A stretch of DNA of 64,000 nucleotides, taken from positions 1,920,001-1,984,000 of the forward strand of contig OY970166.1 of the NCBI GenBank assembly GCA_963706595.1, written 5' to 3'. This DNA comes from an uncultured cyanobacterium (GTDB taxonomy: Bacteria; Cyanobacteriota; Cyanobacteriia; Cyanobacteriales; Nostocaceae). Positions 2,466-63,643 of the stretch are shown here, piece after piece. The position numbers were made by a program, and so were the translations under genes. Under the pieces are notes generated by a model. It ran no database searches. It worked only from the letters and a program-made list of their open reading frames with translations, and was not told the origin of the DNA. Within the stretch, counting starts at the first letter, position 1. Each line of letters begins with the position of its first letter.

Positions 2466-2526
2466 CTTAAAGGCTATCAACTATATGGCGTTTTCTAGTC
2501 TGCTGATGTCAGGATTTATCTGTATG

Positions 2527-7236: not shown

Positions 7237-7313
7237 CATTCCCTTGTAGGGAAGGGGGCTAGGGGGTTAGGTTCCGCGTTGGTTTTTCTAGATACCGTGA
7301 AAAGTGAATACGG

Positions 7314-8282: not shown

Positions 8283-8675
8283 GAATTGATGGCGGAGGAT
8301 TTTTTATGGTTGTTGGGGCGGGTTTATTAAGTAAGTCGTTGTAAATAATTAAAGGTTTGTAGTCGGGACTTTAGTCCTGAATTAAGGGCTAAAGCCCTTA
8401 CTACGAGCTAAAAGGCAATAAAGGGAAAAATCTTCACCGGGACAGTTAAAGCTGTTTTGGGATGAGTTGAATATTGATAATGAGGAAATTCAACAAGTTG
8501 CGTCTAAGTTTGTAAAAGCGAATTGTTATAACCCTAATCCTATTTCAACGGAGGATGTACTATAAATATCTGTGCCGGATTGAGAAAACAGAGTGCCAGG
8601 TATCCGAAAGCCACGAACCCGTAAGGATTCGTGGTAAGTTACGTGTTTATAAAACTTAAAAATTATTTGTAACCT

Positions 8676-10067
8676 TTAGATGTTACACTTTACAAGTCTC
8701 GACGCGAAAGAAGAGATAACATATCCCTCGTAACCAATACTACCCTCCAAAATATTACCATACTCTATAGGTAGGTGGGCTTCAGGTGCTTTTAGATCAA
8801 ATGTAATATCTTTGTACTTCAACCAGTCTCCTCCTTTTCTCCATCCCACTTTGTCCCCAAAAGCGTCCCAGATTTTCTCGTCGTACTCTCTTGTTCCACC
8901 CAAACTTTGATAAATGCGCTTTTGGACAGAAAACCCAAATCGCCCATTACTATATTTTACCCACAACTGGTCAATAGTGCGGAGGTCTTCACAGGGAAAA
9001 TTATCAATATCTTCTTCATCTAACCAACCGTCTTCTTCCCGCTTCGCTACCGTTACTACTAGTAGTGCTGTTTCCTCATCTGCTTCTTTCCACTTCCCAG
9101 AAGCGAGTAAGTCACGCAGCTTTTTATAGTCCATCCCTACGGCTGATTTTAATCCCCCCTCCTCGCTTGCGGGGTTAGGGGGTGGGGTGATTCTCTCCTG
9201 CTGGCGCTGAGGGGTTGGTACTGGAGTGAAAACTAAACCCAAATTTTTGCGAAACTGCAACACCGTTGGGGTACGTTCTTCGGGTTCTAACGCCATCCCC
9301 TGTAAAATGGCATCATTCACCTTCTGACTAATACGGGAATTATAACTGCGTGGTTCTGGTAAAGGTTCATCATCATACTTACGATTTAGCGCAGGTACTG
9401 GGAATAGTTCGCCCTCTTTTTTGAGTCCGTCCGCAGTCAGCAGATAATATAAGGTTGCGGCTAAAGCGTAAACATCGGTATGGGAACCAAAGTTACCTTT
9501 GCGTCTATATTGTTCTATGGGTGCATAACCTTCTGTGCGTGAGTTAGTCATGCTTTGGGTAGCAATACTCCGAGTTAAACCAAAGTCAATTAACACCGCT
9601 TCTTGTTGATTTTTTCGTAAGAGGATATTTTGCGGTTTGATATCTCGGTGTAAGTGTCCCTTTTGATGAATATATTCTAAAGCCTGTCCAATTTGGTCTA
9701 TATATAATAGTGCTTCTGTTTCTAATAGTTGTCCTTTTTTCTGGACATATTCAAATAAAGTTACGCCATCTATATATTCCATCACCATGCCAAAAAGTTC
9801 ACCTTCTTGGATGACTTCATTAACTTTGAGTATATGGCGATGGTCAAAGCCTTTAATTGTCAAGGCTTCGTTAATAAATTTTACCTGTTCTTCGGCAAAG
9901 TCGTCTTTGACTTGCATTTGCTGATTCAGGGTTTTGATGGCGTATAATTTCCCTGTGTTGGTTTCTTGGGCTTTGTAGGTAATGCCAAAACCTCCGCAAC
10001 CCAAGGGTTTACCCTGAATGATAAATCTACCTTTGTTTATTGGTTGGTCGGGTTGCCAAATTATCAT
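8676..10067 (-). CDS. Ser/Thr protein kinase with C-terminal GUN4 domain
   Basis: LGCGGFGITY, AIK, HRDIKPQN, DFG and GYAPIE; GUN4 motifs WKEADEET and IDQLWVKYSNGRFGFSVQ. Confidence 0.92.
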   Translation of the reverse strand: MIIWQPDQPINKGRFIIQGKPLGCGGFGITYKAQETNTGKLYAIKTLNQQMQVKDDFAEEQVKFINEALTIKGFDHRHILKVNEVIQEGELFGMVMEYIDGVTLFEYVQKKGQLLETEALLYIDQIGQALEYIHQKGHLHRDIKPQNILLRKNQQEAVLIDFGLTRSIATQSMTNSRTEGYAPIEQYRRKGNFGSHTDVYALAATLYYLLTADGLKKEGELFPVPALNRKYDDEPLPEPRSYNSRISQKVNDAILQGMALEPEERTPTVLQFRKNLGLVFTPVPTPQRQQERITPPPNPASEEGGLKSAVGMDYKKLRDLLASGKWKEADEETALLVVTVAKREEDGWLDEEDIDNFPCEDLRTIDQLWVKYSNGRFGFSVQKRIYQSLGGTREYDEKIWDAFGDKVGWRKGGDWLKYKDITFDLKAPEAHLPIEYGNILEGSIGYEGYVISSFASRLVKCNI

Positions 10068-10277
10068 GGATTTGTCAAGATATATACTCTGTCCTGTGGC
10101 GATGTCTACCTGGGAATCAGGGTGTGGTTTTGTATAAATTATAGTATAAACGATTAATTAAGAACCCCACCCCCAACCCCTCCCCGCAAGCGAGGAGGGG
10201 AGTTAAGAGATGCGTTGGGTGATGATCAGTTTTATACAAATGTGGGTAAGATGCTTACTCCACTCCCCCGACAGACC

Positions 10278-10310
10278 AGATCCCCGACTTCTTCAAGAAG
10301 TCGGGGATCT
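10278..10310. terminator. Perfect 16-bp-arm palindrome downstream of chlB (REP-like, possible terminator)
   Basis: AGATCCCCGACTTCTT-C-AAGAAGTCGGGGATCT. Confidence 0.5.
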
Positions 10311-10387
10311 ATATAGCGTAAAGCCTCCAGCTTAAACAAGGTTTTTTTTCTCCCCTGCTCCCTGCTCCCTGCTCCCTTGCCTCTTTT

Positions 10388-11914
10388 CTAAGCGCCTACG
10401 GATTCTTTGGCTGCATAAAGCACTTCGGCGTTAATCTCTTTGAAGCCTCTCTCACGGGCAAATTTCTCGGTGTTGCGTTTGACTTTACCTCGCACAAATC
10501 CGGGAATTTTGTTGAGTTCGGCTTGTCCGTCTTTCGACCAGTTGAGGTCTGAGTCGGCTGAGATTCCTTTGGTAATTACTTCTTTGGTGTCGTGTCCACC
10601 GAAGATTTCTAAGAGGTGATCTTCCATTCCCAAGGTGAAGGAGTTGTATATCAAGTCTGTGATCTGATTTGTTCCTTCGTAACCTAAAAATGGTTTGTAT
10701 CCTATGGGGAAGTTCTGGACGTGTATGGGTGATGCTATGACTCCACAAGGAATGTCTAAGCGTTTTCCTACGTGGCGTTCCATTTGTGTACCGAATATGG
10801 CTGAGGGTTCCACACGGGCGATCGCATCTCCAATTTCTCCGTGATCGTCGGTAATCAGCACTTCGTCACAATATTCGCTCACCTGTTCGCGGAACCAGTC
10901 TGCATCATATTTACAGTAGGTTCCCGCCCAAACTACGTGTATCCCCATTTCTCTCGCCAAAATCTTGGTCATGGCCGCAGCGTGGGTATTGTCGCCAAAG
11001 ACTACGGCTTTTTTACCAGTCAAGTTTTGACAGTCAATAGAACGGGAGAACCACACAGCTTGAGATACATTCATGGTTTGTTCGGTGATGAATGCTTCGT
11101 AATCAGCTTCAGCGCCTTGGGCGTTAATTACCTGCTGAATTTTACGGATACATCTGGCAGTTTCTACTACACCCATTGGGGTAATATCTACACAAGGTGT
11201 ACCGAATTGTTCTTCTAAGTAAGCAGCAGTGGCTAAACCCAGTTCTCGGTAAGGAACTAAGTTAAACCAAGCTTGGGGTAATTTTTTCAAGTCATGAACC
11301 GAAGCACCTTCAGGAATCATCGTATTGATTTCAATTCCTAAGTCAGCCATTAGCCGCTTGAGTTCGGTGCAGTCGTGGTTGTTATGAAAACCCAGGGTAG
11401 AATTACCTATAATGTTAACAGAAGGTTTTGCCGTTTTGCCTTCTGGTAATTCGCCCCGCTTCCGGGCTTTTTCGATGTAATACTGCACAATTTGGTGCAA
11501 TGTGCGGTCTGCGGCTTGCAGTTCGTTGAAGCGGTAGTGGTTGACATCTGCTAACATGACATCCCCTTTGGCTTCTAGCTGCGCCCGTTCTACAAAGTTG
11601 TGTAAATCTTCTTGGAGAATGCTAGATGTGCAGGTGGGAGTTAACACAATTAAATCGGGGTGTTCTTCACCATCTTTGCGGACTATGTTATCTACTACTT
11701 TTTCTTGAGAACCCCTGGCTAAAACGTTGCGGTCAACTACACTGGTGGTTACAGGGGTAAAGTTTTTCTCCCGTGATAACATGGAGCGCATGACGTTGAA
11801 GTAGTCATCGCCTAGTGGGGCGTGCATAATCGCATGGACGTTTTTAAATGAACTCGCGACTCGCAGTGTGCCGATGTGGGCTGGCCCTGCATACATCCAG
11901 TAAGCTAATTTCAT
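10388..11914 (-). CDS. chlB: Light-independent protochlorophyllide reductase subunit B
   Basis: [39 protein letters not shown] start; C-terminal [15 protein letters not shown]. Confidence 0.97.
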
Positions 11915-12217
11915 GAATGTGTTCTCCCTTTGCAACTGAAATAACTATAAGTGCTTGATTATGAAATCGCTTCTGATTGTCTCAAATGTTGGAGTCGCAA
12001 TGAAAGGGGAGTTTTTGTTGATGGGGTTGGTAATTAATCGCTGAAACTGAGTGGGTGATTGGGGTTTAGCTTCTGGTTTTAACAATATTCATGTTGTTTA
12101 ATTAAATAACTCTTAATGATTGGACAAGTATTTTTATCAATTTTTGTTGATTGTTAAATTAATGCTAAGAATATTTTGCACCGCAGAGGCGCAGAGTACA
12201 CAGAGGAGAGAATACAT

Positions 12218-12955
12218 CTAGACTGTGGTGGGATTGCAGACTACTTCTTTAATTAATCGTCCGTCTTCCATCTGAATGATCCGGTCTGCTATGTCTAATA
12301 TGCGGTTGTCGTGTGTCACCATTAAGATGGCGCAGTTCTGTTCTCTGGCTAGTTGTTGCATGAGGTTGACTACATCTCGTCCCGTTGTACTGTCTAAAGC
12401 GGCGGTGGGTTCATCTGCTAGGACTAATTTGGGATGACTGACTAAAGCCCGCGCGATCGCCACTCGTTGTTTTTGTCCTCCGGAAAGATCCGATGGATAG
12501 TAATCTACTCGATTCCCCAATTTTACAGCGTTGAGCATCGCTTCTGCTTTCCGGTGTGCTTCTTTTGAGGAGATGTTTGTATGTAACTCTAGTGACATTT
12601 GGACGTTTTGTCGGGCTGTTAAAAAATCTAATAAATTATGAGCTTGAAAAATATAGCCAATATGACGACGTACTTTGACTAATTCTTCATTACTAGCTCC
12701 ATAAAGTTCTTTTCCTAAAAACTTGAGACTTCCATCTTGAATCGAACGTAAACCTCCAATTAAGGTCAGTAAGGTGGTTTTTCCTGAACCTGAAGGTCCT
12801 GTCATAATGACAATTTCTCCAGGTTGAATGGCTAAATTAATATTAAACAAAATCTGGAGCCTTAAGGCATTTTTTCCCAAGTATTGGTTCAGGTTTTCTA
12901 TTTTGACAATATATTGTTTTTGAATCTGCCGAGAGCCAAATTTATCTGTGTCCAT
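12218..12955 (-). CDS. devA: DevA-family ABC exporter ATP-binding subunit
   Basis: GPSGSGKTT, LSGGQKQRVAIARAL, ADEPTAALD and VTHDNRILD; downstream of devB/devC homologues. Confidence 0.85.
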   Translation of the reverse strand: MDTDKFGSRQIQKQYIVKIENLNQYLGKNALRLQILFNINLAIQPGEIVIMTGPSGSGKTTLLTLIGGLRSIQDGSLKFLGKELYGASNEELVKVRRHIGYIFQAHNLLDFLTARQNVQMSLELHTNISSKEAHRKAEAMLNAVKLGNRVDYYPSDLSGGQKQRVAIARALVSHPKLVLADEPTAALDSTTGRDVVNLMQQLAREQNCAILMVTHDNRILDIADRIIQMEDGRLIKEVVCNPTTV

Positions 12956-12990
12956 CTGTGTTCATCTTTTTCTATGGGCGGTTAATACTT

Positions 12991-13403
12991 TCGGGGATGA
13001 AACCTCACCCCAACCCTCTCCTTAGTAAGGAGAGGGAGCAGGAATATATTTTAATTAACTAAGTTAAAAAATATCGGCTGGGTCTACATTTCGCAGCTTA
13101 TTTGTAGATAAGAATCCAGATACTAAAATCGGGAATGAAACCTCACCCCAACCCTCTCCTTAGTAAGGAGAGAGAGCAGGAATATATTTTAATTAACTAA
13201 GTTAAAATATATCGGCTGGGTCTACATTTCGCAGCTTATTTGTAGATAGAAATCCAGATACTAAAATCGGGGATGAAACCTCACCCCAACCCTCTCCTTA
13301 GTAAGGAGAGGGAGCAGGAATATATTTTAATTAACTAAGTTAAAATATATCGGCTGGGTCTACATTTCGCAGCTTATTTGTAGATAGAAATCCAGATACT
13401 AAA
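12991..13403. repeat. Three tandem 138-bp copies containing the devC 3' end and a hairpin
   Basis: Units start at 12991, 13129 and 13267 and are near-identical. Confidence 0.92.
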
Positions 13404-14512
13404 CACATAATCATGGCTAGGCAAAATACAAATATTGCTCTTTCTGAATTCATCATTACAGGTAATTGAGTCGCGTTCTTGGCAATATCATATAAACCTA
13501 AAGATATGGCAAAACCTGGAACATAACCTAAAGATGCTAAAAGTATAGCTTGTTGGAAAACTATACTCAAAAGATATTTGTTTTTAAATCCCATCGCTTT
13601 GAGTGTGGCATATTCAGCTAAGTGATTAGAAATGTTACTATAGAGAATTTGATAAACGACTATCACACCGACAACAAAACCCATAGTCACCATGAAGTTA
13701 AACACAAACCCAATGGGTGTTCTCAGAGTCCAATAGTCTTTTTCTAATTTGATAAAATCTTCACGAGCAATGAGTTTGACATCTTGAGGTAACTTGGTTG
13801 CTAAATTTGCCAAAACTTTTTCCGGGTTAGCACCGGGTTTGAGCTTAATTAAACCTATATCTATATCTTGTACAGAACGCTCTTGGAATATCCTCAGAAA
13901 AGTTGAGATGCTCACTATTAAATTTCCATCGACTCCGAAGGAAGGACCTAAGCTAAATAAGCCGCCAATTTTGACTTTGTAACCAACTAAGCCAATATAG
14001 CTAAATATTTCAGCCACTACAGTTTTTCCCTGCTCAAAATTTTCAGCCACGGGTCCAAATTCTGGGCGAGATGCACTGTCAAATAAAACCTGATCAGGAA
14101 GTCGGATTAAGTGGAGATTTTGCTGAACGTTTGGTAGATTTATAATCGATGTTATTGGATTAAATCCCAATACATATATAGGGTATTTAAAACCAGTTTG
14201 GGGATTCTTTAGTTTAGCAAATTGTACATATAAAGGACTAACTGATTCTACATCTTCAGAGCCTAAAATCTGGTATAAACGCTGACGAGGAAAGCTTTGG
14301 TTAGATGTCAGAGATTGATATTGAATACTAATTAAAAATAGGTTTCCATCGAGATTCTTATGCAACTGTGTAGCACTTGCATAGAGTGCATCCTGAAAAC
14401 CAATTTGCAGAAACATCAGCACGGATACAAAAGCAATTCCAGCTAAGGCGACAATAAAGCGAGCTTTTTGTTTAACTAATTGTAGCCAAGCTAGAGGTAT
14501 GTTGAGAATCAT
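13340..14512 (-). CDS. devC: DevC/HgdC-family ABC exporter permease
   Basis: IPLAWLQL, GFQDAL, LGPSFGVDGNL, EYATLKAMG and DPADIF terminus. Confidence 0.9.
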   Translation of the reverse strand: MILNIPLAWLQLVKQKARFIVALAGIAFVSVLMFLQIGFQDALYASATQLHKNLDGNLFLISIQYQSLTSNQSFPRQRLYQILGSEDVESVSPLYVQFAKLKNPQTGFKYPIYVLGFNPITSIINLPNVQQNLHLIRLPDQVLFDSASRPEFGPVAENFEQGKTVVAEIFSYIGLVGYKVKIGGLFSLGPSFGVDGNLIVSISTFLRIFQERSVQDIDIGLIKLKPGANPEKVLANLATKLPQDVKLIAREDFIKLEKDYWTLRTPIGFVFNFMVTMGFVVGVIVVYQILYSNISNHLAEYATLKAMGFKNKYLLSIVFQQAILLASLGYVPGFAISLGLYDIAKNATQLPVMMNSERAIFVFCLAMIMCLVSGFLSTNKLRNVDPADIF

Positions 14513-14599
14513 CTAGCTAACCTCAAATGTAAGTAGGCGGGTGTGAATAAAGCCGTCGTCATTTGTCTTTTATCATCGGGAAGGGTTTGAGGCGTTTAT

Positions 14600-15799
14600 T
14601 TATATGTCAATGAGTACCTGCACTTGTAAGTCGGTTAGAGTCGTAACTGGTTGGTCTTTAGGTAGCTGATCGAGGCGGATTTTGACATCAACTACTTTGT
14701 TATCTGTATTCACTTGGGGATTGAGATCAAAAATATTTTGTCTACTAACTTGCAAACCAATATCTGTAACTTTTCCGCGTAATTCTCCGCTAAAAGCATT
14801 GCTAGTAATCATGGCTGACTGTCCTAGACGTACTTTTTGAATATCGGTTTCATAGACTTCTGCAACGACATACATTTGTTGTGTGCGTCCTAACTCTGCT
14901 ATCCCGGCGCTGGTGATAATTTCTCCGGGGCGAGTGTTAATTTTCAGCACTTGGCCGTCGATAGGCGATCGCACTGAACTTAAATCCCAGTCAGCTTGGG
15001 CTTGTCTGACAGAGGCGATCGCACTCTCAACGTCAGTTTGTGCGGCTTGAATATCAGTAGGACGAACTTCCGCAATACTCTGGAGTCTAGCTTCAGCTTC
15101 ATTTAACTGCTTTTGCAGAGTTTCTACAGTCCGCTTCAGAGCCGCTTGAGCTTCATTTAGCTGCTGTCTGACAGTATCAACTCGCAACTGTTTGCTCTCT
15201 GCATTGGAAGCGGAAACCGCACCTTCATCATATAACTGTCGATATCGTCGATTTTCACTCTCAGCATTCCGCAACTCAGCTTCTAAACGAGCAATTGTGG
15301 CTTCTTGCGCCGAAACTTCTCCTCTCAATTGAGCTTCTAAACGAGCAATTGTAGCTGCTTGTGCAGAGATGTCTCCGGCTTTTGCTCCCGCTTTTACTTG
15401 GTTAACACCCGCTTGAGCAACTAAAACCTGTTTTTGGGCTTTTTCTAAAGCTGCAAGTCGAGTATAATAATTGTCTAAAATTGCCACCACTTCCCCTTGA
15501 GTCACCCAGTCCCCTTGATTAACCAAGAGTTTTGCCACCCGCACCCCCGTTTGGGAATTAGCAGCAGATAACCGAATCACTTCGCCTTGAGGCTCTAAAC
15601 GTCCTAAAGCAGCAACAGCAGTGATAGCAGGGGAACTGCTGGGTGTAATTAAAGTTTCCACTGTCGAAGTTGAACGATTGCGGGAAAAACTGTAGAAGGA
15701 AATTGTCCCAGTCGCTACAGCTATAGAAATTGCCAAAATTATTGACAACTGACTTACAGGTTTTGTGAATAACTGTCTTTGTTTGGGTACCATAATCAC
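14600..15799 (-). CDS. devB: DevB/HgdB-family membrane fusion protein
   Basis: N-terminal TM, ALGRLEPQGEVI, coiled coil and AEVYETDI. Confidence 0.9.
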   Translation of the reverse strand: MIMVPKQRQLFTKPVSQLSIILAISIAVATGTISFYSFSRNRSTSTVETLITPSSSPAITAVAALGRLEPQGEVIRLSAANSQTGVRVAKLLVNQGDWVTQGEVVAILDNYYTRLAALEKAQKQVLVAQAGVNQVKAGAKAGDISAQAATIARLEAQLRGEVSAQEATIARLEAELRNAESENRRYRQLYDEGAVSASNAESKQLRVDTVRQQLNEAQAALKRTVETLQKQLNEAEARLQSIAEVRPTDIQAAQTDVESAIASVRQAQADWDLSSVRSPIDGQVLKINTRPGEIITSAGIAELGRTQQMYVVAEVYETDIQKVRLGQSAMITSNAFSGELRGKVTDIGLQVSRQNIFDLNPQVNTDNKVVDVKIRLDQLPKDQPVTTLTDLQVQVLIDI

Positions 15800-15925
15800 T
15801 TTTTTCTCAGTTAAAGATATGGAAAGAAATCCGGTTTGATTTATGAAAAAATTAAATATTGTAGGGTGCGTAAGGATAAAATCCGTAACGCACCATGATT
15901 AACGACTTTGTGCCGTACTCTCCCG

Positions 15926-16019
15926 TAGACATCTGGTGAAAAAGAATGTAGAGACGTTTCATGGAACCTCTCTACAACGGTTCTGTGATCACGCATATTT
16001 TATTTTCACCTGATGTCTA
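15926..16019. mobile_element. MITE-like element with TAGACATCTGGTGAAAA / TTTTCACCTGATGTCTA ends
   Basis: 17-bp inverted ends around a GTAGAGACG...TCTCTAC palindrome. Confidence 0.55.
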
Positions 16020-16027
16020 ATAACTAC

Positions 16028-16351
16028 TTACTTGTTGAGGACTACCTCTTTTTTATTTTTCATAATTGCTAAGTATTCACGACGTGTTCCGTCTATTCGG
16101 TAATGGTCACAGATTTGGCAGAGTTTCAAAATATCCAATCGGCTGAATAGTTTTTGATGCTCAATGTTGTTATCAGTCCTCCATCGCCAAAAAGTTGTCC
16201 GGTCAATACGGCGATTACTCTCAGGCCATCTGCGTCGGGATAAGAAATCTACTATTTCTTGTTCATAAAACGAGTAGCCTTTAGGCAATTTTAACAGTTC
16301 TTCTCTTAACTCAACTAGCGGAATGAGTGGATCTAACTCAGATAGTCTCAT
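16028..16351 (-). CDS. Small putative DNA-binding protein (MerR/excisionase-like HTH)
   Basis: 107 aa; IDRTTFWRWR resembles a MerR-type recognition helix; heads the devBCA side of the cluster. Confidence 0.55.
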   Translation of the reverse strand: MRLSELDPLIPLVELREELLKLPKGYSFYEQEIVDFLSRRRWPESNRRIDRTTFWRWRTDNNIEHQKLFSRLDILKLCQICDHYRIDGTRREYLAIMKNKKEVVLNK

Positions 16352-44131: not shown

Positions 44132-47100
44132 TTAATTTCTAGTGCCAATTCCATTCAAATATATAATGACTGGACTATTGAAAGCATCACTACTAATACT
44201 GAGTTTTGCATCACGTTTCCCTTCACCTTGAGCATAGAAACTCACATCAATTTGATATTGATCACCTGGAGCTACTACAGTTTGAGTAATGCGGCCAGTA
44301 GGACTAAATTCGTTAGTATGGTTAGGGCTAAAGTCGTTAGTATGGTTGCCTTCTATCTGAATATTAGTGATACTTAAAGGTGCTGAACCTGTGTTAGTAA
44401 CTATAATAGTTTGTGGTGGGCTACTTTGATCTCCTATTTCTTGTTGTCCAAAGGTCAAGGAAGTACGACTTAGGCTGATATTTGGTCCAGGAGGGTTGGT
44501 GGCATTTCCAGTTAATTGAACTTGTTTGGGACTACCCGCAGCGTTATGGGCAATTTCTAGAATGGCTTGGCGATCGCCTTCATTTCTGGGTTGAAATTTG
44601 ATAGTAATTTGACAATTCTTTTCTGGTTCAACAGATGAATTATTAGCACAACTATTTTTAACAAATTTAAACTCTTGACTATCAATATTAGTGCTAGTTA
44701 TCTTCAAAGATGCTGAACCTGTGTTAGTAACTGTAATAGTTTGTGATTGGCTACTTTGATCTCCTATTTCTTGTTTTCTAAAGGTTAAGGAAGGACGACT
44801 TAGGCTGATATTTGGTCTAGGAGGGTTGGTGGCATTTCCAGTTAATTGCACTTGTTTGGGACTACCCGCAGCATTATGGGAAATTTCTAGAATGGCTTGG
44901 CGATCGCCTTCATTTCTGGGTTGAAATTTGACAGTAATTTGACAATTCTTTTCTGGTTCAACAGAGTAATTATTAGCACAATTATTCTTGATAATTTCAA
45001 ATTCTTGACTGTTAATTTTAGTGCTAGTTATCTTCAAAGATGCTGAACCTGTGTTAGTAACTGTAATAGTTTGTGGTTGGCTACTTTGATCTCCTATTTC
45101 TTGTTTTCCAAAGGTTAAGGAAGCACGATTTAGGCTGATATTTGGTACAGGACGCTTGGTGGCATTTCCAGTTAATTGGACTTGTTTGGGATTACCCGCA
45201 GCATTATGGGCAATTGCTAGAATGGCTTGGTGATCGCCTTCATTTCTGGGTTGGAATTTGATAGTAATTTGACAATTCTTTTCTGGTTCAACAGATGAAT
45301 TATTAGCACAATCATTCTTGATAATTTCAAATTCTTGACTGTCAATTTTACTACTAATTATCTTCAAAGATGCTGAACCTGCATTATCAATAGTAATTTC
45401 TGCTGTATTGCTATCTCCAAGAAAGATGTCACCAAAGTCCAATATCTGAGATTCAATCACCAAAATAGGTACAGGTATTTCACTTCCACTTCCAGTAAGT
45501 TGGACAAGCTGGGGAGTATCACTAGCATCGTGGTAAATTGTCAGTTCAGCATTGTACTGACCAGGAGTTTTGGGAGTGAAATCAATACTGATTTGGCAAA
45601 TATCTTGAGGATTGATCACATCTCCCGTAGCACAACCTCCAGATATAGTTTTAAAATTATCCTTTCTCTCACCACTAATCACAATAGCGAGAATTTTTAG
45701 GGGTTTTAAGCCTTGATTGCTAAAGGTCAAAGTTTTTGCTGGACTAGTTTGATTAATCTCTAAGGTGTTGAAATCTAGATTTTCTGGAGCAAGTACAACC
45801 CTAGCCTGATAGTTAGATAAAACAGATTTAATTCCCCATCCAATTAAGAACAGTCCAAAAATAGCAACAATTACCTTTAACCACAGAGGAAATCGGAGAA
45901 TGAGTAAATGAGACTCTGGCAGATGTTCGGGAATATTTGCGGATGGTTTTTCGCTAATATCAGGTACTTGATTGAGGATGTTGAGATTATGACGAGTGGC
46001 TTCAGCACCAATTTTGTCACCTAAAGATTCCCGAATCCGAAGTGCTTCATTTAAGAATTTTTGAGTTGAACTTTGATTTCCCAAACAAAGTTCACGAGTC
46101 CCCAGTTGATGCCATACCCAACTTTCGGTAACTTGGTCTCCAATGCTTTGCACCGCTTGCAGAGTTTGTTCCAATACCTGCCGCCATGCGTCCCACTGCC
46201 CATTCAGGTACTAGAGAACTTTCTGCGGCTCTGGCAAGAGTAGTCATCTCTGCATGATGACCATGCGCTGCTGCCCATTGCAATAGTTCCAAAAGTACAT
46301 CTGATTCTTGCAATAAGTTTTCAGGCAATGATTGATACTGTTGTACCCAGTTGCTAGAATAATTTAATATTTGCTCCATGCAAGCAGTTAAATTCCATTC
46401 CTGCTTCACAAACTCAATCACGTTGTTGGCGATGCGATAACAATCACCTTCCAACTCTACTAAATGAAATTTTTGCAAGCTATTTAAAAGTGGTTCAATC
46501 TTCAGTGCTTCTGTCTGGGCAGATGTATGCGATATTTGACTTATTTGTTGAGCAGCAAGCGTTGTTAAGGAAATTAGAATCGCTAAAATTGATAAAATCC
46601 AACGTTGAGATTTGGTGAGCGAACCCAATATATGCTTCCGCAAAAATTCCTCACGAGAAGATGATTTTACTAATTGTAATACTTCTGCTAAGGATAGGTT
46701 TTTTTCCTTGGCGATCGCTACTGTTTGAAGAATATCAAGAGGATGATTTTCCAAGGCAACACAGAGTAACTTAGCAGTAGATAATTCCTCCGGTGTTAAA
46801 GTTCTTCTTAACTCCTGTTCTACTAAACGTAAAGCATCCCTCTCCGGTAAACCTGGTAAAGCTTCAGCATATCCCTCTCCCCAAATATGTCGCTCATGAG
46901 ATGCCAGTATAAATGTGCCATTGGGGACGACGGTATTAATTACTCTATCCAAGTCATCTTGTTGCCACTGCACATCATCTAAAAGTAGCAGAAATTTTTT
47001 ATTATCTAACTTAAATTTAATCTCATCGTCAGTAGGTTTATAGGGAATATCACTGCTATAAAAGGCATTAAATAAAAATTGCAGCCAGTCAGAAATAGAC

Positions 47101-47633
47101 TTGCCACGAGTATCGTCATAGATAATACCATCAGGAAAGAGTTTTTCAATTTGAGGATGGTAAGAAAGGTAACGCAAAAGTACAGACTTTCCTAATCCCT
47201 TTCGTCCATAAAATTCTACTGGTTGTTCATACTGAAGGCTGGTAATTGTACTACTAACTTCTGATTTGCGACCTAGTAGACCAACAAACTGACGCGGACG
47301 AAAAAAAATCGGGGTGGTGCGAGGTGTTAATTTAACTTGTTGCTGTGGAGAAGTAATATTCACAATCCCACCATAAATATCTTTTATTTGGTAAATGTAA
47401 TTACCACAAGCTATTTGACTATTAGTATTTTCATTGATGTTATAGATGTCATCGCCAATTCTCTGAGCGTTTACCGTCTCAGCATTTACTACATCTCCAG
47501 CAAAGTGAGCGCCTTTTAAGTTGAAATTATTGGTTTCATTATTTACAGTTTGCTGGTTGTTATCGCCTTGAACATTATTGACGTTTCCGCCTACAGAACC
47601 ACCAACTGAAAAGTCATTAGGATTGTTAGTCAT
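44132..47633 (-). CDS. NLR-like STAND protein: N/G/Q-rich motif - NB-ARC - TPR - TM - five Ig-like (ASH / choice-of-anchor D) domains; 1-nt frameshift at about 46207
   Basis: Walker A GRKGLGKS, Walker B LLLLDD and HPL motif in 46092-47633; frame continues as LNGQWDAWRQVLEQ into 44132-46174 (TPR, TM WLKVIVAIFGLFLIGWGI, Ig repeats); ~1166 aa if joined. Confidence 0.75.
44374..45380 (-). repeat. About three near-identical 330-bp (110-aa) Ig-domain repeats
   Basis: TGCTGAACCTG anchor recurs at about 44381, 44711, 45041 and 45371. Confidence 0.9.
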
Positions 47634-52488: not shown

Positions 52489-53136
52489 ATTTCCAGGAGT
52501 GTAAAATTTTAAAATTATCCCACAATTCAGGAAGAGGATGTAACTACTTGGGAAAAGCGGTGCTTCAGTTATTTTTATGGAAAACTTTGGACAATAAATA
52601 TTTTATAGCCATTATCCAGTGCTGTTTCCACTCCAGACACTACTCAGTATCATTCTGACAATTGTTTTTATTGTCGAACTTTACCAATTTCAAAATTTAT
52701 GAGGCTGGTCTTTGCTGTGGGCAACAATTCAAGGGTCAACGCAGAAAAGGACAAAATAAGGGGCAACCTTTTTCCTTTCTAATTCTCAATGAAGGTAGAG
52801 GAATGGACTTTACCATAAACTTTTAGAAACCCTGGCGGTTGACACTCAGCAATTAACAAATTTTGTGTATTTTGCCCTCTCCAGATATCCCAATCAGAAT
52901 TCTAAATAGCACTCCATTCAGGGATACAATAACACTAGATATAGAAATCATATTTGATTTATGAAAAATTTTAAGTATTGTAGTGGCGTGGCAAGGCTAA
53001 AATGTTGCAATAGATTTTAGCCTTGTCACGCTACTACGTGTCTGTTCAAAAATCAAATAGTAGTCCTATATTTAATCCCGAAATCTGCAATTTATTTTGC
53101 ACCACTACTTATGAAAAAACAAAAGTGAAAACTAAA

Positions 53137-54306
53137 ATGCGGATACTAATGATTACGCCTAACTCAATTGCTGCAAAACGTCCTTTAGAGTGGTGTCTGA
53201 TCAACGGAGATGAAGTTTTGTGTGTCGGAGAAGAGGACTTCTATCAAAACAACCCTCCTCAAAACTATAGTTTTATCCCTGCTATTTCTAGTGGCATAGA
53301 TATCTTGCTAAATTCACCTGAATCAACCACAGAAAAGATAGCGGATTTGCGTAAATTACAAATAGAGCAACTGCAAAAATTAGTCAAAGAATTTCAACCT
53401 GATGTCATTCATGGGCATTACTTTTCGTTCACTGTAGAATGTTGTGCCTTAGCAAATTTGCACCCTTTAGTCGTATCAGTTTGGGGATTTTTGAATGATT
53501 TAATGTCGTCTGAAGCAGAGCGTCTCTTTAAATTTTATCCAGAGATACGTCCAATCATAGAATCGTCTGACGCTTTAATTGTTGAGACTCCTATTTTACT
53601 TGATAAATGTCAACCGTTCTTGAAATCTAACCAGCGATTAGAGTTAATACCTTTAGGTACAAACACACAACACTTCTCTCCTTATGATGGAGAGAATGTA
53701 GATTGAGCCAGAAAAATCTTAAATATTCCCCAAGAAGCTAAAGTTTTGTTATCGCCAAGAGGTTGGGATGAATCTTATCGGCATCAAGAGATTCTAGAAG
53801 CATTTGCTCTAGCTTATTCAGAATTACCACACCCAACAATACTTTTATTTATAGCTTTAGGGCGTGGCACAAGTGAAGAAGCTAAACTTTATCATCAAGG
53901 TATATTTCAGGTAATAGATAAACTAAAAATAAAGGATCATGTTAAAATCTTGCCTCCTATGTCTTATGAAATGATGCCTTATGTCTATGCTTTGGCAGAT
54001 GTAGTCATTAACTATCCTATTAATGACGCTTTTCCGTCTACGATAATAGAAGCAGTTGCCTGTGAACGACCTGTAATTACTGCTCAATTGCCAGGTTACA
54101 AAGGTACGTTCATTGAGGAATTCTGTACTTTAGTTGATGCCAATAATATGACTGAGTTAGCTAAGGCTATGGCTGAAGTCGTCAATACACCCAGAACTAA
54201 TTACAGCAGTCAAATTGCTAAAGCCCGTCAGGTAATAGTTGAACAATACGATGAGAGTATATTTAAAAATCGTCTGTTTAATCTTTATAAAAATCTGATG
54301 ATATGA
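53137..54306 (+). pseudogene. GT4 (GT-B) glycosyltransferase with an in-frame TGA at 53704-53706
   Basis: MRILMIT...FQPDVIHGH and DAFPSTIIEAVACERPVI lie in the same frame on both sides of one stop; 389 aa if read through. Confidence 0.75.
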
Positions 54307-54420
54307 TACTTTTTTAATACTGAATCTAGTACCTAGTGAGGCGTAAAATTCAGATAAGATCATGCTCTTGTCATCAGGAATTGAGATAAATGAAAGTTAA
54401 TTCTAGAGAAGCCATCACAA

Positions 54421-55671
54421 ATGCTTAAAAATATGGCTTGGTTCGAGCGAATTCGCCAACTATTTGAGTTCAGAAATTTTCGTCTTTTTTTCATAGGAGA
54501 TGCAATTTCTCTACTTGGTAGTTATATCCAGGGAATAGCCAACGTCTGGCTAGTTTATGATCTAACTAATTCGGCATTTTTGTTAGCTTTAGTCCAATTT
54601 TCAGGACTAATTTCTAATTTAACTTTCGCTCCTTTTGGCGGTATTATGGCAGATCAGATCAATCGCCATCGCATTATTCTAGTTACTGAAACTCTTTGTA
54701 TCTTGCCACCTTTAGCTCTAGCAGCTTTAACATTAACTGATACCATTCAAATTTGGCATATTATTATTTTGGATATTTTTAAAGGCATCATTAATGCCTT
54801 TTATGTGCCAGCACGTCACTCATTGTTTACAGAAATGGTAGAGAAAAAAGAATATTTAGGTAATGCGATCGCTTTCAATTCTTCAATATACAATGCTACT
54901 AGATTTATTGGTCCGGCTATTGGTGGTTTGTTAGTTGCTGCCTTTGGTGTGGGAATCTGTTTTTTAATTGACGCTCTTAGCTTTATACCGATGATCATTG
55001 CTCTTTCAGCTATGAATATTAAACCCAGCACAATAAATGTTAGTCATACTAGTTACTGGGAGAAATTAAAAGAAGGGTTTGTTTATGCTTCTAGCTTCCC
55101 ACCCAGTCGCGCAATTTTAACTCTACTAGGTCTTTCCAGTTTTATGGGAATGTCTTATGCGATTTTAGTACCTGTGTTTGCTGAAGAGATTCTTCACGGT
55201 GACGCTAAAACTCTAGGCTTTTTAATGTCAAGTTCGGGAATAGGAGCATTAATCGCCGCAATTTATCTAAGTTCAAGACATAGTATCATAGGATTAGAAA
55301 ACATAATTGCTTTTGCCCCAGTTATTTTTGGTAGTGGACTAATTGCTTTTTCATTTTTTCAAAGTTTTTGGTTGTCTTCCTTGATGTTGCTATTAATTGG
55401 ATTTGGTTTAGTTATGCAAGTAACATCTAGCAATACAGTTTTACAAATCTTAGTAGATGATGACAAACGAGGACGTTTAATGAGCTTTTTTAGTATGGTA
55501 GTTACGGTGATGGCATCACTAGGAGGTTTATTTGTTGGCGGCTTGGCTACCCATATCGGTGTCTCCATGACTTTAAGAATTTGCGGATTTTTCTGTGTTT
55601 TAGGTTCGTTTTTATTTTATCAAAAAACTCCGATGTTAAGACATTTTATTGAACAAACTCACAAAGCTTAA
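54421..55671 (+). CDS. MFS transporter (EntS/DHA3-like exporter)
   Basis: RNFRLFFIG, GGIMADQINR, RFIGPAIGG and DDKRGRLMS; about 12 TM segments. Confidence 0.88.
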   Translation: MLKNMAWFERIRQLFEFRNFRLFFIGDAISLLGSYIQGIANVWLVYDLTNSAFLLALVQFSGLISNLTFAPFGGIMADQINRHRIILVTETLCILPPLALAALTLTDTIQIWHIIILDIFKGIINAFYVPARHSLFTEMVEKKEYLGNAIAFNSSIYNATRFIGPAIGGLLVAAFGVGICFLIDALSFIPMIIALSAMNIKPSTINVSHTSYWEKLKEGFVYASSFPPSRAILTLLGLSSFMGMSYAILVPVFAEEILHGDAKTLGFLMSSSGIGALIAAIYLSSRHSIIGLENIIAFAPVIFGSGLIAFSFFQSFWLSSLMLLLIGFGLVMQVTSSNTVLQILVDDDKRGRLMSFFSMVVTVMASLGGLFVGGLATHIGVSMTLRICGFFCVLGSFLFYQKTPMLRHFIEQTHKA

Positions 55672-55922
55672 AAAACTGTTTGATCAAAATTATTTATTGA
55701 CTATAGGAATAATATTTGATTTTTCAAATATACGTACGATGGGCATTACCAACTAAAATCTGGATATTGTGGGCAATGCTGAAACCAAGTATGAATTTAG
55801 GTGTAGAGACGTTGCATGGAACGTCTCTGCAAGGGTTTCGATATCATCAAAAATCATTTTCATACATCAAATCAGCAACGCCGATATTTTCAGCGCAAGC
55901 TATCAGCAACGCCATAATTTAC

Positions 55923-56492
55923 TTATTCTTCAAACTGGTAATTTCCTAATTTTATATCTTCAGCAAAATACTCAGATACAAAATCTTTAGTTTCTTGATT
56001 GTAATAAAGAGCGTAATTTTTTTCTCTGGTATTGGGAATAAAGTGAGGAAGAACGGGGGCTGCAATCCCAATTTGTTCGCAAATCAACTTAAAATCATTG
56101 TTTAAGTTTTCAAATCTAGCAATAAACTTAACTTTTTTATTTTTCCCATAGACATAATCTACTTGTCGTTGCCGATGATAGAATGCTGAAGGTGAAATGA
56201 AATTAGGAAAATTTAAACAAAACTCCGCAAATGATATGTTCAGTTTAGGCAATCCTTCATATTTACCATCATTCCAATAGTGATATAAACTGACCATCCT
56301 ATCCCAAGGGTTTCTGATAAAACAAAAAGAAAAGAAACTATCCCAAGTTTCTTGATCGTATTCATCGGGTAAAAAATGGCCTTTATACGTTCCCCATTTT
56401 TCTTTAAGTTCGGGAAATAAAGTAACGGTAACAGCAGAACCGGCAGTTTTTGGAATATGAATGAAAATGAACTTTCTTTCTGTGTCAATCAT
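55923..56492 (-). CDS. Sulfotransferase family 2 protein
   Basis: PAPS-binding motifs FIHIPKTAGSA and FIRNPWDRMVSLY. Confidence 0.88.
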   Translation of the reverse strand: MIDTERKFIFIHIPKTAGSAVTVTLFPELKEKWGTYKGHFLPDEYDQETWDSFFSFCFIRNPWDRMVSLYHYWNDGKYEGLPKLNISFAEFCLNFPNFISPSAFYHRQRQVDYVYGKNKKVKFIARFENLNNDFKLICEQIGIAAPVLPHFIPNTREKNYALYYNQETKDFVSEYFAEDIKLGNYQFEE

Positions 56493-56571
56493 AGTTTTAG
56501 TAATTGCAGCTAAACAAAATAAAAGAAATTACAAAAAAGCAAAAATAATCAATGTGCTTCAGTCCAGGCAA

Positions 56572-57489
56572 TTATTTTTCCAACTGACGGCACATCTTTT
56601 CCCACCGTTTTTCGATTAGCTGTGAAAATATCGGCTCAGGGTAAGTCAAATTCTTTTGATTGATCATTTGAATTTTTTCTAGCCAATTTTTAGACTGGTT
56701 GAGAAAGTCTGGCGTGACTTTTTGTGCTGTTGAAATATTTCCTATAGAAAAATGTAAATCAAGTTCTTTTTGAGTCGGGTTGATACCAAAAGCTTTTAGT
56801 TGGTCTTCCAGAATCTTGATTGTCGTTAGTTTTTGTTCTTGCTCATGCTTACTGCTCATTTGATTTGGGTGTTGATGATAAAGATAATGTACTTCAGGAA
56901 TGTTAGCAAATTTCACATATTTTGCAGAACGCACCCAGAATTCATAGTCTTCTGCATACTCATAGGCAGGATCGTACCATAGCTGTGTTTCGGTGAAGGC
57001 AGAACGACGGATAATGGTAGTACCATGTGGAATTGTTCCTCTATTGGAGAAGAACAAATTACATCGAATAGTTTCATCATCTGTAGGATACTGACAAACG
57101 AAATCCGCACCCAAACCAGTGATTTCTAGCCAAGTACCACATACCCCCACTTCTGGATGAGTTTCCATAAAATTAACTTGTCTAGTTAAACGATTAGGAA
57201 GACTAATATCATCTCCATCAGAATGGACAATATACTCTCCTGTAGCCAAGGGTAATACTTTATTTAAACTATAAACTTTTTTCAAATTCTGCTCGTTTCG
57301 GAGTAACTTTATTCGGGAATCTTGCTTTGCATAAAATTCGAGAATAGACCAGGTATTATCTGTAGAACCATCATCAATGATCATCAACTCAAAGTCTTTA
57401 AATGTTTGGTCTAAGAAGCTCCTTATGGTTTTTTCTATAAAAATTCCTACATTATAAACAGAGATGACTACGCTAATTTTCGGAGACAT
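56572..57489 (-). CDS. GT2 glycosyltransferase
   Basis: KISVVISVYN, IDDGSTD, DGDDISLPNRL and AEDYEFW. Confidence 0.9.
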   Translation of the reverse strand: MSPKISVVISVYNVGIFIEKTIRSFLDQTFKDFELMIIDDGSTDNTWSILEFYAKQDSRIKLLRNEQNLKKVYSLNKVLPLATGEYIVHSDGDDISLPNRLTRQVNFMETHPEVGVCGTWLEITGLGADFVCQYPTDDETIRCNLFFSNRGTIPHGTTIIRRSAFTETQLWYDPAYEYAEDYEFWVRSAKYVKFANIPEVHYLYHQHPNQMSSKHEQEQKLTTIKILEDQLKAFGINPTQKELDLHFSIGNISTAQKVTPDFLNQSKNWLEKIQMINQKNLTYPEPIFSQLIEKRWEKMCRQLEK

Positions 57490-57554
57490 TGTTAATTTTT
57501 AAATTAATTACTTGATGAAGTTTTTTGACTGACAGACAAATTTTCAATTATTAA

Positions 57555-57575
57555 CCCCGCAATTTTCATGCGGGG
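57555..57575 (-). terminator. Hairpin between the peptide gene and GT2
   Basis: CCCCGCA-N7-TGCGGGG. Confidence 0.45.
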
Positions 57576-57635
57576 CTACTAGATGACTACACTGGTATTT
57601 AATTTAGTCAATCAGGAGTCAACTAACTAATCAAA

Positions 57636-57866
57636 CTATGCTACTGATAGAGCTATTGGATGAGCAGTACGTGCTGCAGTTCTACTCCAAGCAGTACGTG
57701 ATGCAATTCTACTCCAAGCAGTACGTGATGCAATTCCACGTAGAGCAGTACGTGATGCAATTCCACATAGAGCAGTACGTGATGCTGTAGCCGAAATGGA
57801 TATTTCTTCTAAGTTCAACTCAGTTAACTGATTCAGAAAATCTTCAAAAGAAGGTTGGTAGCTCAT
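57636..57866 (-). CDS. Putative RiPP precursor: acidic leader plus five A(S/A)RTA-xxx repeat cassettes
   Basis: GAGGA RBS about 10 nt upstream; 27-bp DNA period (AGCAGTACGTG at 57663, 57690, 57717, 57744, 57771). Confidence 0.65.
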   Translation of the reverse strand: MSYQPSFEDFLNQLTELNLEEISISATASRTALCGIASRTALRGIASRTAWSRIASRTAWSRTAARTAHPIALSVA

Positions 57867-58032
57867 GACGCAATTATCCTCAAAAAATTAATTGATGGCT
57901 TTGAAATCAGTATTATCATACAGCACTTTGCTGACAAGTTAAAAGTTAAACAAATACCAATACTATAGCCAAATTACGAGGGTTCAACGGCTGTAGAAGC
58001 ATTCAACCTATCCCACTAATAGGCGTTGCAGA

Positions 58033-58250
58033 ATGGACAACCGAGACCAGTATGATTACGGTTGGAACTCAAAAGGACAGCGCTTCCATGCACTTAAATC
58101 AGGTCGTCGTGAAGGTCGGGTGAACATAATTGCCGCGCTGTGTAACCATAAGCTGATAGCTCCTTTCACTGTTGAGGGTGCGTGTAATCGAATAGTATTT
58201 GAGACTTGGCTTGAAGCTTGTTTACTTCCCACACTCAAACCGGGACATTT
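58033..58250 (+). mobile_element. IS630-family transposase internal fragment
   Basis: YGWNSKGQRF...RVNIIAAL...APFTVEGACNRIVFETWLEACLLPTLKPG; truncated at both ends. Confidence 0.8.
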
Positions 58251-58365
58251 TCGAGATCAGCTTCGACGTTTAAGTGGGCAGTAGAGTTAACAAAGCCTGA
58301 TTATAAACTGGAAATGAGAGGTGAACCCATCCATAATAAAGGGAGATGTTATTTTTAATTTAGTT

Positions 58366-60468: not shown

Positions 60469-63400
60469 TTACTCCAAAATTGCACTCTTATTCAGCGCTA
60501 TCAATTGCTTAAAAGCCTCATTATTTAACTCCGTCAACCAAGACTCATCACTACCAACCACAGAAGAAGAAAGTTTTTTCTTATCCTCAATCATTTGGTC
60601 AATTCTCTCCTCCAAAGTCCCAATAGTCACAAACTTATGCACAAACACATTCTTTTTTTGACCAATGCGAAAAGCCCTGTCAGTGGCTTGATCCTCAACG
60701 GCTGGATTCCACCAACGGTCAAAATGGAAAACATGATTGGCTTTCGTCAGAGTAATACCCACACCACCAGCTTTCAGCGAAAGGATAAACACAGATGGTT
60801 CCGTATCCGGGTCTTGAAATTCAGTAATCATCTGTTCTCGACGTTTGCGACTCGTGCCACCATGTAGGTAGTAAGTATTGCAGTGCAGACTATGTTTAAG
60901 ATGCTTTTCCACACTTTCGCAAACATCTGTAAACTGGCTAAATATCAGCAAACTTTCACCTTCAGCAACCGCTTCATCTACCATTTCTGCTAATCGGCTC
61001 AGTTTGTGCGATCGCTCAGTGGAAAATGCACTATTATCTTGTAAGAACTGGGCAGGATGATTACAAATTTGTTTTAATTTCAGCAGAGTTGAAAGGATCA
61101 ATCCTTTGCGTTGAATACCTTCTGTTTTTTGCAGCTTTTCTTCAACATCTTTCACCACCACTTCATATAGTGATGCCTGTTCTTTAGTTAAATTAGTATA
61201 GAGTTTTTGTTCAACTTTATCTGGCAAATCATTAATAATCGATTGGTCAGTTTTTACCCGGCGTAAAATTAGCGGTTCCACCAATTTCTTCAAGGTAACT
61301 GATTTCACCCGGTCATTATCTTTCTGAATGGGAATTTCAAAAGACTTGCGAAACTGGGCTTCTTTACCCAAATAACCAGGATTGAGAAAATTAAAAATTG
61401 ACCATAAATCCAGCAGTCTGTTTTCTACAGGCGTTCCTGTTAACGCGAGTCGGTGTTTTGCCGAAATTTTGAGGATAGCTTTGGTTTGTGCAGCTTTGGG
61501 ATTTTTGATATTTTGCGCCTCATCTAAAACCAGACGTTGCCATTCCACACTATTGAACAGCTTTTCATCCTTCCGGGCTAGAGTGAAGGAAGTAATAATC
61601 ACATCATGCTGTTGACAAGCGGCTTTAAAATCAGGAGAATTTTGTAGGCGATCGCTACCATGATGCACCATACTTTTTAAATGGGGTGCAAACTTAGCAA
61701 TTTCCTTTTGCCAATTACCCACAACGGAAGTAGGCGCAATTAATAAAGTAGGTAAAACAGACTCCACTGCATCCTTTTCCTGCACAAGTCTAGCAATTAC
61801 TTGTACCGACTTACCCAAACCCATATCATCTGCTAAACAGCCATTTAAACCCAAACGTTCTAGATATTCCAACCAAGCCACACCCCGCTTTTGGTACTCG
61901 CGTAAAGTGCCTTGCAGATTTAACGTTTCAGAAATTGGTTCCAATTGGCTTTTATCTTGCAACTTCGCTATCATCTCCGATAGCACTTCATCATGTTCAA
62001 TTTCCCACTCTTCCCCAACTTCGGCACTGCGTTGTAAAAACTCCAACAAATTCATTTGGGGTTGTTCATCACCGTGAGACTCCCAAAATTCCAATAATTG
62101 CTGCATTTTATCCCGGTCTAATTCCATCCACTGACCGCGAAAATGCACGAGAGGAGATTTAGCATTAATTAATTGTTCCCATTCTTGGGGAGTCACAACT
62201 TGTTCCCCAATGGCTAATTCATATTGATACTCTACCAGGGAATCTAAACCAAAATAGCTTTTTGTTTCCCCTTTAGTTGGCGCGAGTTTCTTACCAGATG
62301 CTTTCAGGCGAACTTTGGCACGACGGCGACCAGCAGGAGTATACCAAGCAGGTACAATGACTTTAAAACCTGCATCTTCTAACAACCAAGCACTTTCTTT
62401 GAGAAAATCAAACGCCGCATCTAAAGTCAGTTGCATTCCTGTCGGCTGGTCTGTTTCTAACCCTTGCCAAAGTTGAGGATACATTCGCGCTGCGTAACCC
62501 AAATTTAACAGCAAATTAGTTTCAAAGTTTTTACCAAAATTCTTCTGTACAGAAGTTTTAGCTGTTTGATTCATGTTCCAGTAATCAGCTAAATCCAACT
62601 TTAAAGAAGGGTCTTGTTTACTGGCTACCAAAAATTGCATCTGCCAATTTTCTATTTCTTCGCTAGTAGGAGAATGCAGTTGAAAGCAGAGATAAAAAGG
62701 TGAATCTGATTGAGTGCGGGTAATTTTATTTTTCCACCCTTGCCATTGTTTATATTCTTCTAAAGCAGCATGACTTGTGAGTGGGTTATGGCGTTGGGGA
62801 TAAAGACAATAATCAATTAGAGAGTCTGAGATTTGCTTATCAAAAGCTGCTGTCGAAGGTGTATGTAGTAACTAAATCATTTAGTACAGATTCAGAAAAA
62901 TGCCGTAATAAAGTTTCCTGATTAAAGAACTCAATACTATCACTTGATTTTGCCGCACCTGCCACACAAATTAGTGGCATATAGTCAATATATTTTTGGA
63001 TATTACTTTCGTATTGTTCGGAAACAATTTCCCAGTTGGCATAAATTTCAAAAGGCTGAGAAGTTGGTTGTTTGCCTTTTTTCTTAGTTGTTGCGGCTGC
63101 TAACTGCCGATATTTCAGCGCTGGAATATATTGGTCTTTGATAATTACTTCTTTAAAAGCTTGAGTGTAGTGATACCAAAACAGCAAATCAGAACCAAGT
63201 TGAATATCCCCAGAATTATATAGTGCTAAAAAATGAATATCATTGATTAATTTAATGAAATTTATCGCTTTTTCAGCCTTAGCATAGATTGCTGTTTCAT
63301 AACAATCAACTTGCCAATATTGAAACTCCTCATAATCTTCAGGAATTTCCACTTCCAGATACTTAACTAATTCCGGCGAAGGTAAAGGCTGATTATTCGT

Positions 63401-63643
63401 AGTTGGTAAAGCAAAATATTTTGGAGAAATCAACTGACTCAATTGAGACGCTGTGGCTTTAATTCCCAACTCCTGCGTTAAAAAATTAGATAATTCCGCC
63501 TTAGCTAAATGTCCTGGATGAATACCTTGGCTATGACTGCGGCTTTTCTGACTAACCGGAGTTTCCACCCACAAATAAAAAGACCCCGACTGAATAAAAT
63601 CAGTAGACGCATCTGGTATCCAAGTTCCATGCAGGACTTTCAT
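60469..63643 (-). CDS. SNF2-family helicase, split by a 1-nt frameshift at about 62866
   Basis: LADDMGLGKS, LDEAQ, LTGTP and QATDRAFRIGQ; the helicase frame is open upstream to HTPSTAAFDKQI and overlaps 62840-63643; ~1057 aa if joined. Confidence 0.88.

Follow-up and report, generated by a model that had tools for sequence, protein, structure and literature searches.

Glycocins such as sublancin, glycocin F and thermoglycocin derive from a ribosomal precursor that is glycosylated on Ser, Thr or Cys (PMC12457901; here and below, papers given by PMC number are cited for the available parts of their texts). The locus described here lies in a window of 64 000 nucleotides (the whole stretch of DNA that was analysed, from an uncultured cyanobacterium of the Nostocaceae), where a small precursor-like ORF with a probable double-glycine-type leader sits in a 5.8-kb island; GG-less exceptions to this leader type are known among glycocins (PMC12457901). 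Glycocins carry nested disulfides and a PCAT, whereas the window core has one Cys and its island no PCAT (PMC12457901); the window cluster also differs from glycocins in having a sulfotransferase and a repeated core. A linear RiPP logic without a cyclising enzyme is common to the window cluster, the linear polyphosphorylated peptides (LPP; PMC13381572) and pseudomycoidin-type lasso tailoring (PMC6993621). LPP- and lasso-like features (PqqD/RRE, HprK-like kinase, PF14907 nucleotidyltransferase and B2-like protease) occur in a sister clade of the GT4 glycosyltransferase discussed below, whereas the window island contains no RRE, kinase, nucleotidyltransferase, leader peptidase or cyclase, and its leader differs.

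Cyanobactins (PMC2854353, PMC10885120) resemble the window ORF in their acidic helical-type leader and in core-like units parted by constant residues, but they have PatA/PatG, YcaO and the G(L/V)E(A/P)S and AYDG sequences (PMC10885120), all missing from the window cluster. A cyanobactin reading was ruled out, with no PatA/PatG in the island, no YcaO, and neither G(L/V)E(A/P)S nor AYDG in the 76-aa sequence. Cyanobacterial double-glycine 'bacteriocin' clusters of groups I–VII probably share the leader type and are, unlike the window cluster, defined by C39-ABC transporter and HlyD genes (PMC3140520); 'glycosyl' has no occurrence in the main text of that paper. RaxX-RaxST combines a small precursor with a PAPS-dependent sulfotransferase, as here, but RaxST sulfates Tyr, whereas the window core has no Tyr and the island has an MFS exporter only and no type I secretion genes (PMC6637879).

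The cluster works most like glycocins and LPP, yet wherever a defining feature of glycocins, cyanobactins, lasso/LPP or RaxX-type systems was tested, it was missing. Our search of literature listings and main-text passages found no description of the leader family or cluster; the cluster tables of PMC13381572 or PMC12710340 might list RRE-linked sister clusters. The available parts of PMC13381572, PMC12710340, PMC4558948, PMC12457901, PMC10885120, PMC2854353, PMC6993621, PMC3140520 and PMC6637879 likewise do not describe the family, which is rare and apparently undescribed.

The precursor ORF and its cassettes

The 76-aa ORF, its acidic leader, five 9-aa cassettes, RBS-like site and downstream hairpin lie exactly where the original prediction had placed them, and ORF and Pfam scans also bore out the gene arrangement, i.e. 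GT2 and sulfotransferase genes co-oriented with the precursor, with GT4 and MFS genes convergent from the + strand (Table 1).

Table 1. Features of the island and its precursor ORF (window coordinates).
Feature	Position	Strand	Remarks
Whole insertion, 5.8 kb	52501..58317	.	Between SnoaL-like and metallo-beta-lactamase-fold genes; bounds from comparison with genome G006
GT4 of the precursor-linked family	53137..54306	+	In-frame TGA at 53704-53706, codon 190
MFS exporter, 416 aa	54421..55671	+	MFS_3 / 2A0121-like
Sulfotransferase, 189 aa	55923..56492	-	PF03567, 2e-09; the two PAPS-binding motifs recognisable by sequence
GT2 glycosyltransferase, 305 aa, intact	56572..57489	-	PF00535, 2.8e-34; generic polysaccharide type
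GC-rich hairpin without U-tract	57552..57578	-	Between precursor and GT2
Precursor peptide ORF, 76 aa	57636..57866	-	Leader at about residues 1-25, then Ser/Thr/Arg-rich repeat core
Five 27-nt / 9-aa cassettes	57651..57785	-	A[SA]RTA constant, the other four residues variable
Leader with PS[FY]EDF motif	57792..57866	-	Ile-Ser at the Gly-Gly position of relatives
GAGGA, ribosome-binding-site-like	57877..57881	-	10 nt 5' of the ATG; from sequence only
IS630 transposase fragment	58033..58284	+	Right edge of island

The cassettes begin at residues 28, 37, 46, 55 and 64 of the ORF, and Tandem Repeats Finder reported a 27-nt unit at 57663-57785 (4.6 copies, 91% matches). Since the cassettes are near-identical as DNA, they point to recent tandem duplication. 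Changes between successive cassettes were concentrated in the last 12 nt (15, against a single change among the first 15 nt; binomial P 5e-5), also when the fifth and last copy was left out (7 versus 0, P 0.003), this 12-nt/15-nt split having been picked post hoc, after inspection of the data. Ser and Thr make up 27% of the core, which has one Cys (none in the cores of four relatives), and the ORF contains no Tyr beyond residue 3. Homologue searches with the whole ORF returned the sequence itself or nothing, the ESM Atlas gave no usable match, and no NCBIfam model or Pfam family matched.

The hairpin (stem 10 bp, loop 7 nt; -17.7 kcal/mol for a folded 45-nt piece) occurs once in the genome, has no U-tract and was not called by terminator prediction; it could possibly act as an mRNA stabiliser or attenuator. 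A promoter scan was at chance level (21 versus 20.8).

The island and its recurrence

The insertion has a lower GC content (35.8%) than the host genome (41.3%; 5.57 Mb, 94% complete) and contains only the GT4, MFS, sulfotransferase and GT2 genes, the small ORF and the IS630 remnant. Among the matches listed, its flanking gene pair is adjacent in eight of ten same-genus genomes, and one of the ten carries a different insert, of 2.2 kb, between the two genes. Short remnants of an AAA-ATPase gene pair that fills the same site in another genome (G002) are visible at 52737-52837 and 58247-58317, and the reading frame of the IS630 fragment terminates inside the latter remnant; by sequence comparison, the island seems to have replaced that gene pair. 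Two host repeat elements (52935-53070 and 55777-55890, with 121 and 86 genomic blastn matches) also lie in the island. Outside it, genes at 44132-47633 (NB-ARC/TPR-like with Ig-like repeats) and 60469-63643 (SNF2-like helicase; both named by eye) look split, hinting at assembly errors or pseudogenes.

Pieces of the GT4, MFS, sulfotransferase and GT2 genes and of the leader, at ~95% identity, were found in two sequencing runs from separate studies, of which X1 is recorded as a single organism and X2 as a freshwater metagenome. Single contigs span GT4-MFS and sulfotransferase-GT2, and the GT2-precursor junction is bridged by none of the contigs listed; most flanking genes are left uncovered, and one X2 contig continues into unrelated sequence left of 52836. 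X1 covers the leader without gaps and with three differing letters, too few to make a Gly-Gly, and the indels listed in the repeat region keep the frame (net -6 in X2, a 3-nt deletion in X1). Two further runs, X3 and X4, cover scattered pieces only and were not used as evidence, and no RNA data set was among the listed carriers. The X2 contigs skip both host repeat elements, and loose ends of X1 and X2 contigs at the hairpin suggest that the loop there has the opposite orientation to the one in the window.

A leader family beside glycosyltransferases

A profile built from the leaders of three relatives, with the window excluded, ranked the window ORF second among 15 627 small ORFs of the genome (a modest E of 0.0068); the top rank went to an ordinary GG precursor encoded next to a peptidase transporter. 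Among 117 016 six-frame segments of this genome, a single one shows the PS[FY]EDF pattern. The leader profile matched none of 3840 small ORFs at 120 control loci (0/2725 at 80 generic GT2 loci, 0/206 at 19 sulfotransferase loci and 0/909 at 21 RRE-clade loci). Strong matches occurred in five of 389 family genomes, each beside glycosyltransferases, all five genomes having supplied, or matching, the seed sequences of the profile; the weaker family matches that we inspected turned out to be noise or GG precursors of the ordinary kind. Nine proteins came up in a later profile search, namely the five seeds and four new relatives (P0140-P0143, protein records without genomic context). Against 1.84 billion representatives there were six matches (three seeds and three long proteins with short repeated matches), and order-wide there were 2/401 matches, the one beyond the host genome (G000) being weak and limited to the GG end. 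The leader is found in only about four independent lineages, kin not being independent.

The leader ends in GG in all four relatives, the window ORF having Ile-Ser at the aligned position; TIGR01847 scores for two of five family members and NCBI names two of the relatives 'bacteriocin'. The leader, earlier likened to those of cyanobactins, is therefore probably better placed with double-glycine 'bacteriocin' leaders. Cores of the relatives are single and non-cassette.

The search of 301 family genomes brought a new leader match, L200, where a precursor, a TPR-GT41, a sulfotransferase and a GT2-sulfotransferase fusion follow in one orientation (10112-16090; G559:C124). The GT2 of L200 falls in the GT2 clade of related clusters. 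GT41 is a family known for protein glycosylation, and the absence of a GT4-family match from the L200 genome fits a GT41 that replaces GT4. Comparison of neighbourhoods, the check put forward with the original prediction, thus linked leader homologues to glycosyltransferases and, in L200 as a second independent cluster, to sulfotransferases. This linkage to peptide-associated glycosyltransferases supports the proposed RiPP-type precursor, and from the sequence evidence the 76-aa ORF is most likely just that. In L156, one of the loci with this leader, LicD, nucleotidyltransferase-aminotransferase, methyltransferase, GT2 and epimerase genes lie beside the precursor-GT4 pair (840-9462), and the LicD, nucleotidyltransferase-aminotransferase and methyltransferase genes of L156 and L157 suggest a phosphocholine- or phosphonate-type decoration of a glycopeptide.

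GT4 as the family-defining enzyme

The GT4, earlier treated as peripheral, is by its linkage to precursor-like ORFs the family-defining enzyme, though broken in this strain by a stop at codon 190 that had been overlooked. The pathway may hence be off here, or possibly the assembly is wrong at this position; X1 and X2 have no stop at this codon. Relatives with 40-51% identity were found in 18 of 300 family genomes, and a search of 185 579 genomes gave 24 clear loci and one weak match, the species-named carriers being heterocyst-forming cyanobacteria. A precursor-like ORF lies within ~3.5 kb in 26 of the 28 GT4 entries examined (RRE only in the other two), and 23 entries have lasso-type YxxP leaders and Thr-rich cores. 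The three best matches to the window GT4 (L156, L157 and L158; 48-50% identity) are accompanied by small ORFs that carry PS[FY]EDF close to their start and whose leaders end in Gly-Gly; a motif test showed no RRE there. L158 is a two-gene cassette of precursor (WP_190826053.1) and GT4 (WP_190826054.1) between transposase genes (judged by sequence).

An unrooted GT4 tree split the window, L156, L157 and L158 from the RRE/YxxP group (support 100/99); once two distant outgroups were added, the four PS[FY]EDF-linked GT4s were not recovered as a single clade, nor was such a clade rejected (p-AU 0.36). The model of the L158 GT4 has a retaining GT-B fold (pLDDT 82.9) and is closest to sucrose-phosphate synthase (Z 33.9) and BshA (Z 32.7), enzymes with small-molecule or lipid acceptors; the protein O-GlcNAc transferase GtfA, and likewise SdgB, scored Z 21.6, below the top match. 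All solved GT4 relatives have at most 18% identity, so structure does not reveal the acceptor. Gene context suggests that it is the precursor, beside which the GT4 is nearly always encoded and which is sometimes its sole partner.

The other island genes

Glycocin transferases are SunS-type GT2 enzymes, whereas the window family has GT4 (or GT41). The window GT2, taken in the original prediction for the linked glycosyltransferase, proved to be of generic type and to lie outside the GT2 clade common to related clusters (28-31% identity to the clade, itself 56-72%). Its best solved relatives are polysaccharide synthases, e.g. SpsA and chondroitin/heparosan synthase, with no glycocin transferase by name among 15 solved-structure matches. 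P0003 alone is close (72%); a metagenome scan gave generic matches of 28-51% and missed P0003.

The sulfotransferase has a near-identical intact copy (P0137), relatives of 25-46% identity in 62 of 400 other genomes, and no significant solved-structure relative. PF03567 enzymes presumably prefer sugars over peptides as sulfation targets. Of the predicted sulfated, Ser/Thr-glycosylated peptide, the linkage of glycosyltransferase and sulfotransferase to the leader stood, while PF03567 would move the sulfate from peptide to sugar.

No protease is encoded in the island, and YcaO had no match in the genome (controls working; genome 94% complete); the PatA-level protease model TIGR03895 gave four weak matches there, none over the cut-off. 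This agrees with the earlier remark that neither protease nor YcaO is nearby. LanC also had no genome match, with its controls silent, and lasso cyclase a weak partial PF00733 match only (profile positions 20-78 of 354). Five C39-peptidase matches all lie elsewhere in the genome.

Proposed pathway and alternatives

We consider it rather probable, from sequence evidence, that the cluster makes a linear Ser/Thr-glycosylated RiPP, probably sulfated on the sugar. The precursor would be translated and its PS[FY]EDF leader recognised by the retaining GT4 without a separate RRE protein; gene linkage suggests that the GT4 would then attach an initial sugar to the Ser/Thr residues that recur in the A-S-R-T-A units. 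As their families imply, the GT2 may extend this sugar and the PF03567 enzyme sulfate it using PAPS. In the weakest step, a host protease encoded elsewhere would remove the GG-less leader and perhaps cut between cassettes, and the MFS protein would export the product. The multicore idea stays alive because an MFS exporter suits short products; since the relatives' cores are single, one core with recurring acceptor sites is no less likely than several cores. Counting against the favoured reading are the stop in the GT4, a leader with neither a double Gly nor an NCBIfam or Pfam match, the modest profile score, the generic GT2, the similarity of the GT4 fold to enzymes for small molecules or lipids, the GT4 clade not recovered with outgroups, the unbridged GT2-precursor junction in X1 and X2, and the small number of independent lineages.

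It is unlikely that only precursor and GT4 belong together, as a two-gene glycopeptide unit, while the GT2, sulfotransferase and MFS genes just share the island and serve a sulfated polysaccharide or small molecule. The generic GT2 would suit such a split, as would the two-gene cassette of L158 and the wide spread of sulfotransferase relatives (62/400 genomes) together with the lack of the leader at the 19 sulfotransferase loci scanned. Yet GT2 and sulfotransferase genes stand directly 3' of the precursor on the same strand, the island holds no polymerase, flippase or sugar-synthesis genes, L200 independently combines the leader with sulfotransferases and a GT2, and the island genes recur in X1 and X2. 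In the original version, the GT2 glycosylates Ser/Thr directly, the peptide itself is sulfated and A-S-R-T-A is a protease recognition sequence freeing separate cores. Operon order, the constant-plus-variable cassettes and an exporter that would suit small products speak for it, but we judge it quite unlikely, given that the leader co-occurs with GT4 or GT41 and not with this GT2, that neither an island protease nor a PatA-level protease in the genome was found, that cores of relatives are single, and that the window core has no Tyr, the residue that RaxST sulfates (PMC6637879).

Chance resemblance of the leader in a decaying or non-coding tandem repeat of a degrading island is very unlikely: the motif occurs nowhere else in the genome and adjoins the only GT4 type next to which it is found at other loci, X1 and X2 indels keep the frame and an RBS-like site is present, against which stand the lack of a homologue for the whole ORF, its low GC3 (0.17), and the GT4 stop, IS630 remnant and repeat insertions. 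Least probable of all, and hardly to be expected, is that the peptide is an unprocessed intracellular carrier or primer for a sulfated oligosaccharide rather than an exported mature product; it would account for the missing double-Gly site and for an island with neither protease nor peptide-exporting ABC transporter, but the GG cleavage site is kept in relatives and C39-peptidase matches exist elsewhere in the genome.

There is a fair chance that the sulfated glyco-RiPP favoured here belongs to a family forming a class of its own. A bolder picture, possible but less likely than not, is that of a new RiPP class in which a leader-reading GT4 (or GT41) acts on a tandem-repeat core carrying several sulfated oligosaccharides, resembling a miniature proteoglycan and perhaps cut into short Arg-containing sulfoglycopeptides for MFS export. 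In that picture, one GT4 family would work with both RRE/YxxP and double-glycine-type leaders, two systems unrelated to each other. If the reading favoured above is right, the RiPP family would have GT4 O-glycosylation as primary modification, then sugar extension and sulfation (or a LicD-type addition in L156 and L157), and would do without enzymes for cyclisation or dehydration. Enzymes of that kind are what routine RiPP mining looks for, and it would pass over these clusters, taking them for polysaccharide genes. A Ser/Thr glycosyltransferase guided by a leader and tolerating very different cores would also be a useful glyco-engineering tool, and the L158 two-gene cassette makes testing simple.

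Related clusters

Those RRE/YxxP GT4 clusters that were scanned against Pfam showed PqqD and GT2, with an HprK-like kinase, a B2-like protease, an ABC transporter and a PF14907 nucleotidyltransferase in addition in those of the Nostoc type; a crude motif check of 45 loci found no asparagine-synthetase/lasso-cyclase motifs. The host genome itself has a second, RRE-type cluster of the GT4 family (L066 5501-10439 on to 2681; G000:C1 ~3282200-3289900), with PqqD, an intact GT4 (45% identical to the window GT4), a 40-aa lasso-leader precursor, an HprK-like kinase, a GT2, a B2-like protease, a split ABC transporter and a shortened nucleotidyltransferase. A tandem array of about eight double-glycine precursors adjoins it (L066 16165-19270).

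A third GT4 clade, from Stigonema and Iningainema (L160, L164, L173, L174, L176 and L178), has RRE and Thr/Lys-rich precursors, mostly followed by large TPR-GT2 and GT4 genes and in some cases with FkbM methyltransferase genes. The GT41 of L200 is a candidate O-GlcNAc-transferase-like RiPP enzyme. At locus L185 (276-1602; G468), an ATP-grasp-like gene adjoins the gene for a double-glycine precursor that has two repeated cores; by eye, the locus appears graspetide-like.
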